Source of the DNA: Myxococcota bacterium
GTDB lineage: Bacteria > Myxococcota > UBA4151
Reading direction: 5' to 3'
Assembly: GCA_036338695.1 (NCBI GenBank)
Contig: JAYZBQ010000058.1
Location: forward strand, 1 to 64,000
DNA: 64,000 bases
The notes under the pieces were generated by a model. That model searched no databases. It was not told where the DNA came from and worked only from the letters and a program-made list of their open reading frames with translations. Numbering within the stretch: the stretch's first letter is position 1; each line of letters begins with the position of its first letter. The position numbers and the translations under genes were made by a program. Below, piece after piece: positions 13,990 through 25,122 of this stretch.

Positions 13990-16629
13990 ATGACACGCTC
14001 AGCCGCCTTATGGTCCTCGCGCCTGCTCGGGTTTGCGATCGTTTTAAACCTCTCGTGCGGCGATCAAGTCGTCATCCGAGAGACCGAAGCCTCCTGCGGC
14101 AACGGGGCGCTCGAAGCTGGAGAAGCATGTGACGATGGCAACGAGGATCCATCGGATGCGTGCACCAACAGCTGTACGATTGCGCGCTGCGGAGACTCGG
14201 TCACCCGCGGTGATCTCTCATTTGGTGATGAGGGCTACGAAGCATGCGACGACGGAAACGCGGTCGACGACGACGAGTGCACCTCTGCTTGCGTCTCAGC
14301 CACCTGCGGCGACGGCATCATACGTAGGGATCGCGCCGAGGGCGACTTGGACTTTGAGCGCTGCGATGATGGCAACCGTGTAGACACCGACGCGTGCCGT
14401 AACGACTGCACCGCGGCGCGCTGCGGCGATGGGATTGTGCGGGATGATTTGGAGCCCGGCGAGCCCGGCTATGAGTCCTGCGACGACGGCAATGACGTGG
14501 ACTCGGACACCTGCCTGGGCACCTGTCAAAGCGCTCGGTGCGGCGATGGCGTGGTCGGACCTGGAGAGGGCTGCGATGACGGCAATGACGACCCCACCGA
14601 CGCCTGCAACGCCTGCCAGCCGTCGTCATGTGGTGACGGCGTGGTGCAAGACGGTGAGCGGTGCGACGACGGCAACGAGGTCGACGTGGATGCGTGCTTG
14701 AGCACCTGCGCTCCAGCAGTCTGCGGCGATGGGGTGATCTGGGCGGACGTAGAGGCGTGCGATGACGGCAACGCCGACCCAGCGGACGCGTGCACCACGG
14801 GCTGCGTCGAGGCTGTCTGCGGTGACCGAATTTTGCGGCGCGATCTCCAGCCCGAAGAGCCGGGCTTTGAGGAGTGCGACGACGGCAACGTCGAGTCGGG
14901 TGATGGCTGCTCGGTGAACTGCGGGCTTGAGCGCTGTGGTAACGGGAGGATCGATCAGGGTGAGGTCTGCGACGACGGCAACGCTGTTGAAACCGACGCA
15001 TGCTTGAGCACCTGCCAGCCGGCGCGCTGCGGCGATGGCACGCTGCGGCAGGATCTCGACGTGGGCGATCAAGGCTTTGAGGCTTGCGACGACGGCAACG
15101 CCAATGACGCCGACGCCTGCCGAAACAGCTGCGTGCTCGCAGCGTGCGGCGACGGCGTCGTGTACGCAGACGCTGAAGATTGTGATGACGGCAACCGCGT
15201 CAGCGGCGACGGCTGCACCTCGGAGTGTCGCGTGGAGGCTTGCGGTAACGGCCGCGTCGACGTCGGGGAAGCCTGCGATGACAACAACCTGGCGGCCGGC
15301 GACGGCTGCGACCCGCAGTGCCGGCTGGAGGTCTGCGGTAACGGGCGCGTCGACGCCGGCGAGGAATGCGACGACGCCAACCGAAGCGAGACGGACAGCT
15401 GCACCAGCGGGTGCCGCCTCGCACGCTGCGGTGACGGGATTCGGCGTCAGGACCTTGAACTGGGCGCTGAAGGTTACGAAGAGTGTGACGACGGCAACGA
15501 GGTCGACGCCGACGGCTGCCGGAACAGCTGCCGCGTCCTGCGATGCGGCGATGGTGTGGTTGCGGCGGGCATCGAGAGCTGCGATGACGGGAACCGAGTC
15601 CAAACCGACGCGTGCCTCAACGACTGCACGTTGGCGCGCTGCGGCGATGGCTTTGTACGCGAAGGCGAGGAAGCCTGCGACGACGGCAACCGCAGCGACA
15701 CGGATGCGTGCACCAACGGCTGCGCAGTAGCTGCCTGCGGCGACGGCATCTTGCGGGCGAACCTCGCAGACGGCGAGGAGGGGTTTGAGGCGTGCGATGA
15801 CGGCAACCAAGTCCAGACTGACGCCTGCCTGAACAACTGCGTGGCCGCCTCGTGCGGTGACCAGATCGTGCGGGCGGGGGTCGAGGACTGCGATGACGGC
15901 AATCAAACTCAGACCGACGCGTGCCTCAACGACTGCAGCGACGCCTCCTGCGGCGATGGGCACGTTCAATCCGGCGTCGAGGGATGCGACGACGGCAACC
16001 GAGTCAACGATGACACGTGCTCGAACGCCTGTGAGCCGACCTCGATCCACAACACCATGGCCTTCGACGGCAACCAAACGGCCGGGGGCTGTTCGTACAA
16101 CAACGCCCACGCCTTCCGATACCGCAACCTCGGCGCCATGACCTGGACCGAATGCGCCGTTGAGGCGTCCAAGCGCGGCGCCGGTATGACGCCTGGCGCT
16201 TACTCGGTGAGCACGGGTTGGTACGGGCACCGACGAGGCGACTCGGCGATGACAGGCGTATGGAACAGCTACCGCGAAGCGTCGATCGGCAGCAACGTCA
16301 ACTGCGTGGTCGGGCGCGACGCTCGATCCAACACGCGCGACGGCCAGCTCAGCGAGTCGATCACTTACGACGGCCGGCGCTGGCGCTATCAGGATTACGG
16401 GCTACGCCATTTTGACGAGTGCTTCTTACTCGCCTCGAACGCCGGCGCCAGCATCATCACGCCCTACACGATCGGCCGCACGGGGGACAACTACTGGGTC
16501 CACAGCGTGCACATGTGCAACACCTACGAGTGGATCACAAACAACGGGCGAGGATTTTCGTACGACAATATGGGTGGTGGGCAACGTTCAAGCCGCCGCA
16601 GCTGCATGGTCGGCTACATCGACTTCTAA
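13990..16629 (+). CDS. Myxobacterial Cys-rich repeat lipoprotein with duplicated C-terminal module
   Basis: About 19 CG[DN]G..CDDGN repeats; LSCGDQVVIRET N-terminus; tip unrelated to that of 2934-5741. Confidence 0.85.
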   Translation: MTRSAALWSSRLLGFAIVLNLSCGDQVVIRETEASCGNGALEAGEACDDGNEDPSDACTNSCTIARCGDSVTRGDLSFGDEGYEACDDGNAVDDDECTSACVSATCGDGIIRRDRAEGDLDFERCDDGNRVDTDACRNDCTAARCGDGIVRDDLEPGEPGYESCDDGNDVDSDTCLGTCQSARCGDGVVGPGEGCDDGNDDPTDACNACQPSSCGDGVVQDGERCDDGNEVDVDACLSTCAPAVCGDGVIWADVEACDDGNADPADACTTGCVEAVCGDRILRRDLQPEEPGFEECDDGNVESGDGCSVNCGLERCGNGRIDQGEVCDDGNAVETDACLSTCQPARCGDGTLRQDLDVGDQGFEACDDGNANDADACRNSCVLAACGDGVVYADAEDCDDGNRVSGDGCTSECRVEACGNGRVDVGEACDDNNLAAGDGCDPQCRLEVCGNGRVDAGEECDDANRSETDSCTSGCRLARCGDGIRRQDLELGAEGYEECDDGNEVDADGCRNSCRVLRCGDGVVAAGIESCDDGNRVQTDACLNDCTLARCGDGFVREGEEACDDGNRSDTDACTNGCAVAACGDGILRANLADGEEGFEACDDGNQVQTDACLNNCVAASCGDQIVRAGVEDCDDGNQTQTDACLNDCSDASCGDGHVQSGVEGCDDGNRVNDDTCSNACEPTSIHNTMAFDGNQTAGGCSYNNAHAFRYRNLGAMTWTECAVEASKRGAGMTPGAYSVSTGWYGHRRGDSAMTGVWNSYREASIGSNVNCVVGRDARSNTRDGQLSESITYDGRRWRYQDYGLRHFDECFLLASNAGASIITPYTIGRTGDNYWVHSVHMCNTYEWITNNGRGFSYDNMGGGQRSSRRSCMVGYIDF

Positions 16630-17531: not shown

Positions 17532-17645
17532 ATGATCCGTTCATCGATGTTTTGGCTGTGCGGCTTCTTTGTGGTCACGCGCCCGTCCTGCGGCGACCAG
17601 GTCGTGGTGCGTGAGACCCAAGCAGCTTGCGGAAATGGGGTGTAG
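17532..17645 (+). pseudogene. Truncated 5' stub of a Cys-rich repeat gene
   Basis: GGAGGGAG then MIRSSMFWLCGFFVVTRPSCGDQVVVRETQAACGNGV*. This matches SCGEQVVVRETRATCGNG and SCGDQVVIRETEASCGNG of the two full paralogs. Confidence 0.7.
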
Positions 17646-17647
17646 TC

Positions 17648-18907
17648 ATGTTGTCTCGATCATTCGCGACGCTTCTGCTGCCAGCGCTTTGGCTCGGGAT
17701 CAGCGCCTGTTCTTTGCCGGACACCATCGACGCCGTCTGCGGGAACGGAGTCGTTGAGGCGGATGAGGCATGCGATGACGGGAACGCAGAAGATACGGAC
17801 AGCTGCTTGAGCACGTGCGTGGCGGCGACCTGCGGTGATGGAGCGGTACACCAGGACGTTGAGGCCTGCGATGACGGCAACACGGAGGACACCGACGCCT
17901 GTCTGAGCATCTGTGTCGCCGCGCGCTGCGGCGATGGGTTCGTCCACGAGGGCGTTGAAGCGTGCGATGACGGTAACGCCGAGGACGGCGACGCCTGTCC
18001 AAGCACCTGCGCTGAAGCGACCTGCGGTGATGGGTTTGTCCATGGCGGTGTAGAAGCCTGCGATGACGGCAACGACGACAACTCAGACGCCTGTCTCGAT
18101 GACTGCACCGACAACCGCTGCGGCGATGGCTTCGTCCACGCGGGCGTGGAAGCCTGTGATGACGGTAACGACGGCAACGACGACGCCTGCTTGGATGACT
18201 GCAGCCAAGCCGCTTGCGGCGATGGCTATGTTCACGTCGGCGTCGAGGCTTGCGATGACGGTAACCTGGAGCCTGGAGATGCCTGCACCGATCGATGTGA
18301 GGTCGCCCGATGCGGCGACGGCGTACTGCACCGCGGTGAAGAAGCCTGCGATGACGGCAACACCAACGACCGAGATGACTGCTCGAATGACTGCGAGGAC
18401 CAGAGCCACCTCGTAAACAATTTTAGCGGCGTGGCGGGTCCCGTCATAGGCGATGGCTGGCGTCAATGCGCCGGCTACTTCGATCGCCGAGACCAAGAGG
18501 ATGTGCCGCTCGATTGGGGCGCTGCTTGCGCGACGCCCGGGACCAATAAAGTGCGCCTGTATTGCGGCGGCGACCTGCAAGAGCATCGCTTCATCGAGGT
18601 GAACCGAAACGTGTTTCGTGAAGGGCTAGGGCAGGGGATTAATGCTGGGGAACCGGCTCGCGATCTCATCACGCGCAGCAGCTGGGGCACCGGCCGCAAC
18701 CTGGGGATGCCGAACCTGATCTGGGCGGATGGGCGCCCCTCTCATCCCCACGTGGGCATGTCGCACTGGGGCAGCGACGGCGAGCCCTGCGTTTGGAACT
18801 ATGAGCGTCGACTGATCATCAATGGACCGGGCTGTACCTACGAGGTCTCTGATTGCCTGGGGCAAAACCCGGGTCACCGCTACCTCTGGGTTTACGTCAA
18901 ACCTTAG
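17648..18907 (+). CDS. Short myxobacterial Cys-rich repeat lipoprotein with a third type of C-terminal domain
   Basis: Lipobox ISAC; 7 CG[DN]G..EACDDGN repeats; unique tip of about 160 aa ending YLWVYVKP. Confidence 0.85.
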   Translation: MLSRSFATLLLPALWLGISACSLPDTIDAVCGNGVVEADEACDDGNAEDTDSCLSTCVAATCGDGAVHQDVEACDDGNTEDTDACLSICVAARCGDGFVHEGVEACDDGNAEDGDACPSTCAEATCGDGFVHGGVEACDDGNDDNSDACLDDCTDNRCGDGFVHAGVEACDDGNDGNDDACLDDCSQAACGDGYVHVGVEACDDGNLEPGDACTDRCEVARCGDGVLHRGEEACDDGNTNDRDDCSNDCEDQSHLVNNFSGVAGPVIGDGWRQCAGYFDRRDQEDVPLDWGAACATPGTNKVRLYCGGDLQEHRFIEVNRNVFREGLGQGINAGEPARDLITRSSWGTGRNLGMPNLIWADGRPSHPHVGMSHWGSDGEPCVWNYERRLIINGPGCTYEVSDCLGQNPGHRYLWVYVKP

Positions 18908-21163: not shown

Positions 21164-23473
21164 ATGAGATACCTAAACCTTCTTGTTCTGACGGTGCTGG
21201 CGGCCTGTGGTGCGCCGAGCCTCGAAGCCCACCAACTCAAAGTCACCATCGAAGACGAACGCCTGACGATCCGTGGCGTCGGCGAGCGCCTTTTGCTCGA
21301 TCTTCCGATCCGGGAGCTCGCGGCACGCAGCGGCTCGGCGAGTCACCAGATGAAGTTTGGCTCGTTCTTAGTCGAGGACCTGCCGCAACAAGCCTGGCAA
21401 GTCAGCGAGTCGATCGACGTCTCAAGCGATGACGAGACCTTGACCGCAAAGCTTGACGGTCTGGGGACGCTGACCGCTGAGATCGTCGCCGACGGACACG
21501 CTAAGGTGACCTGGGCTGCCGAGCAAGGCAACCGCGCTCGGATGGTGATCGACTGTGCAGCCGACGAGCGCTTCATGGGCTTTGGTGCGCAGACCCATGA
21601 CGTCGATCATCGCGGTCAGCGGATCCCTTTGTGGGTGTCGGAGCAGGGGATCGGGAAGAATGACACGGATGAGGTGCCGCCGGTCTGGTTTTTGGTGGGG
21701 CGCCGCCACTCAACCCATATCCCGGTCGCAGCGACCGTGACCTCGCGCGGGATTGCTTGGGCAGTCGAGACCGACGCCTACACCGAGGTAGATCTCTGCC
21801 TTGAGCGCGCCGACGCCACGGCGATTGAGCTGCACGAAGCGACCGTCCGACTGCACGTCTTTGATGGCCCGTCCCCGATGGAGGCGCTCAAGCGCTTCAC
21901 GGGCTGGGTTGGGCGGCCCAAGCTGCCACCGGCGTGGGTTTTTGCGCCATGGAACGACGCCGTTTTCGGTGAAGAGAACGTGCAGCGCTTCGCTGAATTC
22001 TTACGCGATGACTCGATCCCGACCTCAGCGATCTGGAGCGAGGACTGGAAGGGCGGGAACTGGCACGGCGACGCCTACCGGCTCGAGGAAGACTGGCGCC
22101 TTGACCGGGAGATCTACCCCGAGTTCGAGACCCTCACTCAGACGCTTCGCACCATGGGGATCCACCTGATGGTCTACTTCAACACCTTCGTCTTTGAGGC
22201 AGCCGAGATCTTTAACGAGGCGCATGATCAAGGCTTCTTGGTCAAAGACAAGAGCGGGGAGTTCGTCCGTTTCCAGGGGCCTAACGCCAATTTTACGCAC
22301 GCTGGGTTGATCGATCTGACCAATGAGGCTGCCGTAGAGTGGGTCGCCAATGAGCTCCGCCAGGCGCTCGACTACGGTGCTCGGGGATGGATGGCAGATT
22401 ACGCGGAGTGGATGCCTGTGGATGACGTGGTCCTGGCGAGCGGGGAGGACCCCGCGCTGGTTCACAACCGCTACCCGATCATGTGGCAGCAGCTCAATGA
22501 GCGCGTGATCGAGGAGGCAGGGCTCGCAGACGAAGCGATCGCCTTTTATCGCTCAGGCTGGATGGGCTCGCAGCCCTACGCTCGGGTGATCTGGGCCGGT
22601 GATCAAAACACGGACTTTGACCCCAACGACGGCTTCCCGACCATCTTGCCCTTGGGTATCGGGCTGAGCGCAACCGGCTTCCCGTTCTACGGTCACGACA
22701 TCGCCGGCTACCAGAGCAACACCACGGACCCGTCGACTAAAGAGCTGTTCCTGCGCTGGACCAGCCTCGGCGCCTTCTCTCCGGTGATGAGGACCCACCA
22801 CGGAACACACGCCTCCGAGAATTGGAACCTTGAGCGCGATGAGGAGACGACGGCGCACTGGAAGCGCTACGCCCGGCTCCACATGCAGCTGTTTCCCTAT
22901 CTCTGGGGTCTAGCGCAGCGCGCCGTGAACGAAGGTGAACCGATCTGGCGAGGCCTCGGTCTCGAGCACCCGGCCGAGCTTGAGCTCTGGTCCATCATGG
23001 ATCAGGTCTACTTGGGTCCGGCGCTCATGGTTGCGCCCGTTCAGACTCAGGGCGCGACGGCGCGGCAGGTGGTGATCCCGAGCGGACGCTTCGCACCCTT
23101 CTTCGGCGGCGAGGCGGTGACTGGGCCAAAGACGGTTGAGGTGCAAGCGCCCGTGACCGAGATCCCGGTTTTCGTGCGCGCCGGCGGGTTGGTGCCCATG
23201 CTCGCTGAGCCGGTCGATACCTTAATGCCGGATGTTGAGGGGCTGCGCGACCTCGGCGACACAAACGGCGATCGTTTGCTTCATGTCGGGCTCGGGGCCG
23301 CCGGGCGCTTTTGTGAGGCGGATGGCGCCTGCTACGAGCTGACGGGAGAGGGCACCGCACAGCCTGCCAACGAGTTGGTTCTTCAAGGAAATACAGCGCA
23401 TCAAGGTGACGGCTGGCGGCTGGTGACCACCGGTCAGCCAAGCGGTCGCCAGACCCGAGTCATAGCCCACTAA
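21164..23473 (+). CDS. GH31 glycoside hydrolase lipoprotein, related to the YihQ clade
   Basis: Lipobox LAAC; LWVSEQGIG; nucleophile motif GWMADYAE; acid/base motif WAGDQN; GHDIAGY; PVMRTH. Confidence 0.88.
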   Translation: MRYLNLLVLTVLAACGAPSLEAHQLKVTIEDERLTIRGVGERLLLDLPIRELAARSGSASHQMKFGSFLVEDLPQQAWQVSESIDVSSDDETLTAKLDGLGTLTAEIVADGHAKVTWAAEQGNRARMVIDCAADERFMGFGAQTHDVDHRGQRIPLWVSEQGIGKNDTDEVPPVWFLVGRRHSTHIPVAATVTSRGIAWAVETDAYTEVDLCLERADATAIELHEATVRLHVFDGPSPMEALKRFTGWVGRPKLPPAWVFAPWNDAVFGEENVQRFAEFLRDDSIPTSAIWSEDWKGGNWHGDAYRLEEDWRLDREIYPEFETLTQTLRTMGIHLMVYFNTFVFEAAEIFNEAHDQGFLVKDKSGEFVRFQGPNANFTHAGLIDLTNEAAVEWVANELRQALDYGARGWMADYAEWMPVDDVVLASGEDPALVHNRYPIMWQQLNERVIEEAGLADEAIAFYRSGWMGSQPYARVIWAGDQNTDFDPNDGFPTILPLGIGLSATGFPFYGHDIAGYQSNTTDPSTKELFLRWTSLGAFSPVMRTHHGTHASENWNLERDEETTAHWKRYARLHMQLFPYLWGLAQRAVNEGEPIWRGLGLEHPAELELWSIMDQVYLGPALMVAPVQTQGATARQVVIPSGRFAPFFGGEAVTGPKTVEVQAPVTEIPVFVRAGGLVPMLAEPVDTLMPDVEGLRDLGDTNGDRLLHVGLGAAGRFCEADGACYELTGEGTAQPANELVLQGNTAHQGDGWRLVTTGQPSGRQTRVIAH

Positions 23474-23508
23474 TGGCGGCTTAGGGCAGTTGACCGAGCC
23501 GCGGCGTC

Positions 23509-23537
23509 TTGCGCCGGGTGCGAAGTCCTTCTAAAGT
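23509..23537 (+). promoter_or_regulatory. Putative sigma70-type promoter for the poly-Cys leader
   Basis: TTGCGC (23509-14), a 17-nt spacer, TAAAGT (23532-37), then 6 nt to ATG 23544. Confidence 0.6.
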
Positions 23538-23543
23538 GGAACC

Positions 23544-23630
23544 ATGATGAGCCTCAACGTGATCACCACCGACGTCTCTGGGAACGGCACCTGTTGTTGT
23601 TGCTGTTGTTGTACGTCGACCCCGTGGTGA
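23544..23630 (+). CDS. Poly-cysteine leader peptide MMSLNVITTDVSGNGTCCCCCCCTSTPW (candidate attenuator uORF)
   Basis: ATG ATG AGC...ACC TGT TGT TGT TGC TGT TGT TGT ACG TCG ACC CCG TGG TGA, in frame and intergenic. Confidence 0.75.
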   Translation: MMSLNVITTDVSGNGTCCCCCCCTSTPW

Positions 23631-23741
23631 ACTGAGCGCCTTCCTTCCTACTCGCCAGTCTTCAGTCACCACGGAGGTCCTCTTCGGGTGCTGGAATGAT
23701 CTGTCTCATGCATCCGTCTCCTCCCTACTTATCGGATGCAT
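23563..23741 (+). promoter_or_regulatory. Structured leader with mutually exclusive hairpins
   Basis: Segment A (23563-75) pairs with B (23613-30). B (23618-35) alternatively pairs with C (23662-79). A perfect 9-bp stem 23708-16/23733-41 lies just before ATG 23744. Confidence 0.65.
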
Positions 23742-23743
23742 CC

Positions 23744-24703
23744 ATGACCCACTCACTACCCACTGTTCACATCCTCTATGAAAACGCTGCCTGGCTGCCG
23801 CCCTTGACCGAGGCGCTCAAAGCTGAGGGCTTTCCCATCCGGCTGTGGCCAGTTGACGGCGGTTTGATCGATCCGTCCGAGGAGCCACCGGAGGGGTTGT
23901 GGATCAATCGCATCAGCCCATCGTCGCACACGCGTGGGCACCACCACAGCGTCGGCCTGACGCGCGAGTGGCTCTCCTGGCTTCGAGTCCACCGGCGCCG
24001 GGTGATCAACGGCCTCGAGGCGTTCGAACTCGAGATGAGCAAGCTTCGGCAGGACATGGCGCTGCGTCGCCACGGCATCTTGACCCCTAAGACCGTCCTC
24101 GCGGTGGGGCGTGACCAGATCCTCGACGCTGCGGCGCGCTTTGAAGGTCCCTTCATCACCAAGCACAACCAAGGCGGTAAGGGCTTGGGGATCCGGCAGT
24201 TCACCGACGTCGCATCGCTTCGAGCCTATCTCGACTCGGATGCCTTTGATGAGGGCCCCGACGGCAAGCTGATCCTTCAAGAGTTTATCGAAGCCGCCGA
24301 GCCGGTGATCACGCGGGTCGAGGTCGTGGGCGGTGAGATGATCTTCGCCATGAACAGCTCGACCGAAGAGGGTTTTGAGCTCTGCCCTAGCGACGCGTGC
24401 CAGGCGACCCCGGCGTCGGTGTGCCCAGGTGAGGCGCCGAGCAGCAAGTTCAGCCCTGCCACGCTGAGCGCCGACGACCCGCTGGTGCAGAAGTATCTTC
24501 GATTCTGTGCCCTCGAGGGCGTTGAGGTCGCGGGTATCGAGTTCATCACCGACCGACACGGTCGCCGGTACACTTACGACGTCAACGGGACCACCAACTA
24601 CAGCAGCGGCGTCGAGCGCGCCGTCGGCGTCGACGGCATGCGCGAGCTCGCCAAGTACATTCGGGGTATGGCGGGCTGCGCCAGCCTGGACCGGGTCGCC
24701 TAG
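23744..24703 (+). CDS. RimK-like ATP-grasp ligase
   Basis: HILYENAAWLPPL, NRISPSSHTRGH, EMSKLRQ, FITKHNQGGKGLG, ILQEFI, GIEF, YDVNGTTNY. Alternative in-frame starts at 23696 and 23708. Confidence 0.85.
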   Translation: MTHSLPTVHILYENAAWLPPLTEALKAEGFPIRLWPVDGGLIDPSEEPPEGLWINRISPSSHTRGHHHSVGLTREWLSWLRVHRRRVINGLEAFELEMSKLRQDMALRRHGILTPKTVLAVGRDQILDAAARFEGPFITKHNQGGKGLGIRQFTDVASLRAYLDSDAFDEGPDGKLILQEFIEAAEPVITRVEVVGGEMIFAMNSSTEEGFELCPSDACQATPASVCPGEAPSSKFSPATLSADDPLVQKYLRFCALEGVEVAGIEFITDRHGRRYTYDVNGTTNYSSGVERAVGVDGMRELAKYIRGMAGCASLDRVA

Positions 24704-25122
24704 CCCACGTTGTAGGAGCTGTGGTGCAGCGTAATGCGCACCTGCCCATCCACCTTCCGGTAGGCGAAGCTGTAGTCGGCGAAGACTTCCGTGCCATCAG
24801 GCTGGGTGAAGGTGTAGTGCCCCATGTCGTGCGCTGTCAGGCCGTCGCGAGCGATCACGGGTCCGCGGGCGCTGTCAAAATCGACGGCGACGAAGCCGTT
24901 GTGCAAGAAGCCTTTATCGCCCGGATAGTTGACGTCTCCGCCCACAAAGTACGACCGAGCGCCGGCTGCGTCGGTACGAATCGATGGCGACATCGTGGGC
25001 TTGAAGACCAGCTCGGAGAAGTCATAGAGCGCAAGCAAGGCTTCAGGGTCTGCTGCGACGACGCCGGCGCCCCATTGGCTTTGCGCTTCGATGACTTCGT
25101 CGCGTGTGAGTGTATCGTTCAT
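24700..25122 (-). CDS. NTF2/CaMKII-association-fold protein, candidate iota carbonic anhydrase
   Basis: FKPT, SYFVGG, DKGF, MGHYTF and C-terminal ITLHHSS. Confidence 0.7.
   Translation of the reverse strand: MNDTLTRDEVIEAQSQWGAGVVAADPEALLALYDFSELVFKPTMSPSIRTDAAGARSYFVGGDVNYPGDKGFLHNGFVAVDFDSARGPVIARDGLTAHDMGHYTFTQPDGTEVFADYSFAYRKVDGQVRITLHHSSYNVG

Follow-up and report, generated by a model that had tools for sequence, protein, structure and literature searches.

Results

A Cys-rich leader ORF upstream of an ATP-grasp ligase gene

The window analysed here is a stretch of 64,000 nucleotides. In it, a GH31 glycosidase gene (21164-23473) is followed by a RimK-like ATP-grasp ligase gene (23744-24703), and the gap between the two contains a short ORF on the + strand (23544..23630; 28 codons, 87 nt), which is likely leaderless. 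Its translation agrees with the original prediction, and so does its run of seven consecutive Cys codons (23592..23612, + strand), six TGT and one TGC, which is the predicted stall sensor. A second in-frame ATG (23547) and a GTG (23559) are located downstream of the first leader start, and the leader stop codon is separated from the ligase ATG by 113 nt.

The run of seven is the longest Cys run in the 3.36 Mb genome and the only one longer than five. Counting all six frames, there are 342 runs of three, 22 of four, five of five and one of seven. It had also been claimed that TGC predominates in the Cys-rich genes of the window, and the two genes counted bear this out, with TGC:TGT of 73:10 and 27:8. 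The genes at 13990-16629 and 17627-18907 encode proteins of cysteine-rich repeats and have 83 and 35 Cys codons; we take these repeats to resemble the cysteine-rich repeats of myxobacteria. Such proteins imply a high demand for Cys-tRNA.

Rfam covariance models gave no match at E 10 in 23300-23900. The 28-aa leader peptide, a very short query, gave no match at E 10 in NCBIfam, a collection that holds curated leader-peptide models. A genome-wide search for further leaderless Cys leaders yielded 222 candidate starts, among which this ORF alone has more than three Cys, so there is no sign of a ribulon.

Start geometry and codon bias of the leaders

A promoter-like motif precedes the leader on the + strand. 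The TTG of its -35-like hexamer (23509..23514), which is below the threshold of our consensus scan, is invariant in six aligned leaders. The -10-like hexamer (23532..23537) follows after a 17-nt spacer and ends 6 nt before the ATG, a geometry that is conserved. The hexamers, the spacer and the 6-nt gap are thus as originally described, but only 7 of the motif's 12 positions agree with the consensus, and no site was called over the leader by the scan. Its support comes from the conserved geometry in homologues, not from the consensus match. The predicted transcription start is at or beside 23544.

A distance of 6-9 nt between motif and start codon is expected when transcription begins at the start codon. 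We measured this distance in 43 leaders, a set that includes two weak cases (L045 and L088), misses L031 and differs slightly from the 42-locus set described below. An in-frame ATG or GTG is found 6-9 nt past the best promoter-like motif in 28 of the 43, in none of the 43 in either other frame, and at 97 of 3,980 random anchors. By eye, three homologous loci without a leader (L057, L079 and L103) have a promoter-like motif immediately upstream of the ligase start, which would suit a leaderless main gene.

The preference for TGT is likewise shared. Over 93 distinct leaders, TGT accounts for 348 of 541 Cys codons; it is used for 20 of 159 Cys codons in the ligase genes that follow and for 23% of those in the long ORFs of this genome. 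TGT is decoded by tRNA-Cys through wobble pairing, so the bias suits a sensor, and G:U pairing could contribute to it. The leaderless geometry and the TGT bias, both proposed from this single locus, are therefore conserved in homologues.

Recurrence of the leader upstream of ligase homologues

The follow-up suggested with the original prediction was to look for an in-frame Cys run in the 300 nt upstream of orthologous ATP-grasp genes. An in-frame Cys-rich short ORF is present there at all four family orthologues and at many distant homologues. The same-family search covered five other genomes; the ligase was found in four, and the genome without it is 59% complete. A genome of another family (G057) also has a Cys-rich leader at the same place. 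Five aligned relatives all keep the ATG, the Cys codons and the in-frame stop.

For a wider count, a leader was defined as an ORF of 8-45 codons with an ATG or GTG start, a stop 60-220 nt before the gene and at least three Cys in 10 codons. Removing six duplicates and two loci with less than 250 nt upstream from 100 pooled genome loci left 92. Of the 92 distinct genome loci, 42 passed this filter, this locus included (35 of 51 at a ligase identity of at least 55% and 7 of 41 at lower identity). Among the long ORFs of this genome, taken as background, 32 of 1,563 passed. About half of the genome loci thus have no leader. Of 80 metagenome loci, seven had too little upstream DNA, and 59 of the remaining 73 passed; this set overlaps the genome set, and three of its loci (L151, L161 and L192) look doubtful. 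With at least four Cys, the counts are 40 of 92 genome loci, 54 of 73 metagenome loci and 3 of 1,563 background ORFs. Because kin are not independent, these counts show recurrence and not a probability.

Among titled records, those with the closest ligases (66-82% identity) carry the label Myxococcota or Myxococcales. Three records with a leader in front of the homologue are titled Longimicrobiales or Palauibacter (L081, L082 and L084). Many other titles look automatic and were given no weight for the taxonomic range. In L197, two Cys-rich leaders are found in series about 330 nt upstream of the match at 1501, with a hairpin and a U tract after the first. In a record titled Poseidoniales archaeon (L095, L187 and L189), for which the binning and the ligase start are provisional, a short ORF with Cys at its tail is found in front of the homologue. 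Rfam models run over 20 homologous loci, mostly of the type without a leader, yielded nothing but a tRNA and, at the edge of a locus, a cut cobalamin riboswitch, and no cysteine T-box was found in the three plasmid-collection loci scanned.

These data bear on a non-regulatory reading of the run in this genome, in which it would be a TGY microsatellite that arose by chance or has decayed, or would encode Leu, Val or, on the reverse strand, Thr. Triplet repeats do expand by slippage, and the run has seven codons here and four or five in the closest relatives; the promoter match is weak, and in a shifted frame TTG and CTG both encode Leu. However, Cys-rich leaders are enriched upstream of the ligase over the background, and the five aligned relatives keep the whole ORF. 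A purine precedes 86 of 277 first or isolated Cys codons in the leaders, which a Leu-frame reading would not retain. The Leu-frame, Val-frame and reverse-strand Thr readings were rejected, as the start geometry is seen in the Cys frame only and the Leu frame has no start codon here. A chance repeat is largely refuted, and we consider it very improbable.

RNA-library contigs over the leader

We compared assembled contigs from eight sequencing runs, seven of which are recorded as RNA. Contigs on the leader or its UTR were found in three of the eight, all RNA and from three studies (23574-23728, 23589-23788 and 23665-23827). The first two, X1 and X4, come from two studies and cross the Cys run without a gap, which shows that the run is not an assembly slip. 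X4 and the third contig, X10, extend from the leader or UTR into the ligase gene. The contigs are shallow (depth 3-4), strandless and without defined ends, were chosen with this stretch, and may include DNA carry-over. The other five runs have no piece on the leader and no piece falls within 23308-23541, although contig gaps prove nothing. These contigs corroborate the sequence and fit with transcription, but show nothing further.

The ligase and the sulfur context of some homologues

The putatively regulated gene encodes a protein of 319 aa (23744..24703, + strand) assigned to the RimK-like ATP-grasp ligases by PF08443 (E 1.6e-8) and by fold matches. In-frame ATGs at 23696 and 23708 were rejected as its start, because homologues align from 23744. 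In the structural model (mean pLDDT of 84), the closest folds are ArgX, RimK and LysX, with Z of 24-26 and rmsd of 2.7-3.1 over 271-277 residues at 16-18% identity. A C-P-x-D-x-C loop (C214, P215, D217 and C219), poorly resolved in the model, is invariant in 53 ligase sequences. More than 5,900 homologues are found at E 1e-40, and none is informatively named among the matches listed. Our literature search, with subscription journals mostly outside its coverage, found no paper on this leader element or on the function of the ligase. A 140-aa ORF (24700..25122, + strand) overlaps the ligase stop and is likely co-transcribed. It has a homologue at the same place in one relative only (G001), and no family was found for it in Pfam, NCBIfam, PDB or the Atlas.

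The surroundings of homologues suggest a role for the ligase in the supply of cysteine or reduced sulfur. In L077 (4943-8835), the leader and ligase are followed by a complete set of CysM-, JAB-, ThiS- and MoeB/MoeZ-like genes. Parts of this cluster occur elsewhere: CysM-, JAB- and ThiS-like genes in L064, a CysM-like gene in L076, and parts also in L159 and L165. The CysM matches are below curated cut-offs, and the link to cysM is confined to one leader-bearing clade. We take the cluster to resemble the CysM-Mec-CysO-MoeZ route to cysteine. This clade likely has an operon for sulfur-carrier cysteine synthesis behind its Cys leader. In a Bacillus locus (L123, 4762-6957), a SAM-I riboswitch (100 bits) precedes an SfnG-like monooxygenase gene that overlaps the ligase homologue. 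In Pediococcus plasmids (L124, 4101-6939), the ligase is found behind genes for a thioredoxin-domain protein and a dicarboxylate/amino-acid symporter. Other neighbours of the ligase are not conserved.

Two specific functions were weakened. Activation of a CysO-like carrier, in the way ArgX and LysX act on LysW, is made less attractive by the MoeB/MoeZ-like gene in the same cluster. The genome also has a GshB-like gene at another place (290 bits, slightly below the cut-off), which makes the ligase a weaker candidate for the sole glutathione synthetase of the cell. Two cysteine-synthase-like genes are present as well; at 93.6% completeness, no match to PAPS reductase and no SfnG-like gene were found in this genome. 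The organism (G000) is possibly reliant on reduced sulfur.

The proximity of a Cys-rich ORF and an ATP-grasp gene raises another question, which is whether the peptide itself is the product, either a metal- or thiol-binding micropeptide or a graspetide-like precursor modified by the adjacent enzyme. Graspetide ligases share the fold (7mgv, Z 20.6; 7drm, Z 19.9), and the ligase has its own invariant Cys pair. Yet ArgX, RimK and LysX score higher, and no graspetide model in NCBIfam matches the ligase at E 1e-3. Graspetide precursors have a conserved core with Thr/Ser/Lys and Asp/Glu cross-link residues. In contrast, Cys is all that the homologous leader peptides conserve; acidic residues are absent near the run in many of them, and the number and spacing of the Cys vary freely. 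The residues after the Cys run track RNA complementarity and form no peptide motif, and the TGT bias is a signal at the codon level. Half of the homologues have no such ORF, and the Bacillus homologue is preceded by a riboswitch instead. We find a peptide product improbable.

A predicted hairpin relay to the ribosome-binding site

Predicted folds divide the RNA into segments on the + strand that can exchange partners. Segment 2 (23618..23639) comprises the leader 3' end and the stop codon and is the predicted partner of segment 3 (23658..23679) during a Cys stall, with z of -4.5 and -5.1 against shuffles. Segment 3 can pair with segment 2 or with segment 4 (23682..23695), and segment 4 in turn pairs with segment 3 when the ribosome is at the stop codon or with segment 5 (23704..23716) when it is stalled. 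Segment 5 is a predicted anti-RBS arm that pairs with segment 4 or forms a 9-bp helix with segment 6 (23733..23741). The folds and a pair table define segments 3, 4 and 5; segment 6 was placed from sequence and folds. The only SD-like triplet (23734-23736), a weak one, is located within segment 6, 7 nt before the ligase ATG.

In the predicted folds, the 2:3 and 3:4 helices are mutually exclusive and depend on ribosome position: P(3:4) is 0.85 with the ribosome at the stop codon and 0.00 with the ribosome stalled on the Cys codons. The 2:3 duplex scores better than any of 100 shuffles and than pairing with any of 40 non-cognate UTRs. The predicted cost of opening the RBS is 5.9 kcal/mol in the stalled state versus 12.6 at the stop. 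This gap was equalled by 1 of 200 shuffles of segment 2 and 4 of 100 of segment 4, and its sign is constant over all seven Cys codons and eight parameter sets, and likewise in G001; it falls to about 2.3 kcal/mol once 15-30 nt of coding RNA are included. In folds of nascent RNA ending at 23720-23736, the 4:5 helix forms first. In equilibrium folds, the 5:6 helix is present in both states and the RBS is unpaired with a probability of 0.30 and 0.30. The ribosome-free RNA folds with 2:3 intact in an ON-like form (opening cost of 7.4 kcal/mol), and no 1:2 protector is predicted, so the OFF state needs a kinetic trap or repeated cover by ribosomes.

When the whole leader is folded, the partner of the Cys run is the 5' part of the leader itself, and that of the RBS is segment 5. 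The A/C-rich codons in front of the run (23580-23604), often Asn, Gly and Ser in relatives, can pair with the TGT run, and this small hairpin may account for their conservation.

G001 retains most pairs of the four helix cores, and outer pairs of 3:4 and 5:6 are partly lost. The case for covariation consists of two two-sided changes between two species, relative to G001, at 23625:23671 in 2:3 and 23693:23707 in 4:5, taken from a pair table of six sequences.

RNA folds across the leader family

We left out nine leaders as truncated, doubtful or tandem (L045, L088, L095, L151, L161, L187, L189, L192 and L197) from the family fold tests; L144 and L157 were also left out of the RBS opening test, which covered 74 leaders. 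The RBS is more than 1 kcal/mol easier to open when stalled in 31 of the 74 and harder in 16, and the median effect is 0.5 against 0.3 for shuffles. By unpaired probability, stalling opens the RBS in 3 of 42 leaders and closes it in 3 of 42. Individual relatives differ in this effect: G057 mostly shows the reverse, in G004 and G005 it is small or mixed, and G002 gives no consistent result. Equilibrium folds do not support an RBS switch common to the whole family. Pairing of segment 2 is significant in 7 of 42, 14 of 41 and 16 of 76 loci in three tests, with 5 of 76 for controls in the last. At least five U come after the strongest hairpin in 18 of 76 leaders. Together with the weak RBS effect, this suggests that the family likely uses more than one output. 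In a further group (L052, L069, L141, L146, L147, L152, L153, L190 and kin), the strongest UTR hairpin appears by eye to join segment 4 to a downstream arm; there is a G-rich stretch before the SD, and these leaders possibly have the same four-helix relay.

The U tracts raise the possibility that the same Cys sensor and the same 2:3/3:4 switch make a one-time decision during transcription, in which the 3:4 hairpin would pause or terminate the polymerase or Rho would load. It could act as a U-poor intrinsic terminator helped by NusA/NusG, or Rho could act on the C-rich RNA that follows the stop codon. In the many homologues with a hairpin and U tract, the output looks like termination, and G001 has five U of 8 nt after 3:4. 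The genome encodes rho (645 bits, over the cut-off), 23631-23672 has 18 C versus 6 G, and in the accessible text of one study Rho-dependent control was proposed for actinobacterial cys leaders (PMC1262725). With a single decision of this kind, relaxation of ribosome-free RNA to 2:3 would do no harm. On the other hand, only 3-4 U are found in the 8 nt after the 3:4 hairpin here, which amounts to no U tract, and the terminator scan called none at this hairpin. The conserved 4:5 and 5:6 helices would be left unexplained. The entry of X4 and X10 into the gene also speaks against termination, although it shows only that read-through RNA or DNA exists. We consider this transcriptional output less likely in this genome, though a serious competitor, and prefer the translational relay.

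Discussion

It is very likely that the leader is a Cys-sensing attenuator of some kind. We think it probable, from modelling of the RNA, that it switches on the ligase in cysteine shortage through a helix relay that uncovers the RBS, with a translational output. In this mechanism, transcription would begin at the AUG and the ribosome would load without a leader. When Cys-tRNA is scarce, established attenuator biology suggests that the ribosome would wait on the seven mostly wobble-read TGT codons. Segment 2 would then be free to pair with segment 3, segment 4 would capture segment 5, and the RBS would be cheaper to open. With ample Cys-tRNA, a ribosome at the stop codon is predicted to cover segment 2, so that 3:4 and 5:6 form and the RBS is buried; untranslated C-rich RNA may then be open to Rho. 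The ligase produced in shortage would serve the supply of cysteine or reduced sulfur, as the neighbours of its homologues suggest.

In mycobacteria, leaderless poly-Cys ORFs give cysteine-responsive translational attenuation (Canestrari et al., 10.1101/834739). The original prediction was of an equivalent switch in a different phylum. The Cys-sensing attenuator in it is supported, but the predicted mechanism differs. According to the available part of that study, the Cys codons of Ms5788A pair with the SD region, and knock-out of its start codon locks expression OFF (10.1101/834739). Our leader resembles Ms5788A and the 'Cys ribulon', as they are described there, in the length of the ORF (about 30 codons), in the consecutive Cys codons close to the ORF end and in a UTR of about 100 nt. 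Ms5788A-type leaders are ORFs of less than 150 nt that precede a gene and contain two or more Cys codons in a row, as this one does. The leaderless architecture and an RBS whose access is set by a stalled ribosome are also shared, both only as predictions here. Unlike in Ms5788A, no pairing of the Cys codons with the RBS is predicted, and the signal would pass through 2:3/3:4 and 4:5/5:6; a start-codon knock-out, OFF in Ms5788A, is predicted to stay ON-like here. The mycobacterial ribulon, as far as the accessible text goes, spans multiple loci, whereas one such leader was found in this genome, in another phylum and with another target gene. Cys uORFs have been noted in M. tuberculosis as well (PMC13236596, available extract).

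Outside the Actinobacteria, Cys-codon uORF attenuators have already been predicted: the available part of a study of Rhodobacterales describes a two-Cys uORF motif, uORFC-8-2, with a terminator before cysS (PMC8632094). Like uORFC-8-2 in that description and like the trp and his attenuators, our leader has a run of regulatory codons and mutually exclusive 2:3 and 3:4 helices, predicted here. The hairpin and U tract in part of the family (18 of 76) is a further likeness to the trp/his type. This copy differs from that type in having no U tract and no predicted 1:2 protector and in looking leaderless. Compared with the two codons of uORFC-8-2, with UGC dominant in the text available, there are seven Cys codons here, TGT is preferred and an ATP-grasp ligase is controlled. 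For Actinobacteria, leader peptides of cys operons without terminators have been predicted (Seliverstov et al., PMC1262725). As in those leaders, to judge from the accessible sections, the Cys run is near the stop, there is no clear terminator, and pyrimidine-rich stretches possibly bind Rho (PMC1262725). The actinobacterial leaders are described in those sections as having no conserved hairpins (PMC1262725), whereas a conserved helix set is predicted in this genus.

The proposed relay can also be compared with drug-responsive leaders. ermC has a multi-helix layout. As in the ermC/cat translational attenuators, in the account available to us, a stalled ribosome would rearrange alternative hairpins and free a downstream SD (10.1101/834739). 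Unlike in ermC/cat, as treated in that account, the stall here would come from a shortage of tRNA and not from a drug and a nascent-peptide arrest motif.

The principle of Cys-codon attenuation is itself established, and the predicted RNA logic here is unlike that of the one tested case, Ms5788A. Our analysis extends predicted Cys-codon attenuation, with probable leaderless translation, to genomes labelled Myxococcota and Gemmatimonadota. Tentatively, we suggest that these leaders are leaderless Cys-codon attenuators and make up a single family, widespread among uncultured bacteria of marine and fresh waters and so far unpublished, with the same sensor and 2:3 helix and with swapped outputs. 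Some lineages would use an intrinsic terminator. This genus would use a two-stage hairpin relay to the RBS with a ribosome-free default of ON, the reverse of trp, his and Ms5788A. Under the same tentative proposal, the sensor may point to a large orphan ATP-grasp family as an enzyme still missing from the salvage of cysteine or reduced sulfur, in an organism for which we found no PAPS reductase. The leader could thus serve as a functional label for an ATP-grasp family with more than 5,900 close homologues. The presence of the ligase behind a Cys leader here, behind a SAM riboswitch in Bacillus and with a cysteine-synthase cluster in one clade provides a testable lead on its chemistry.
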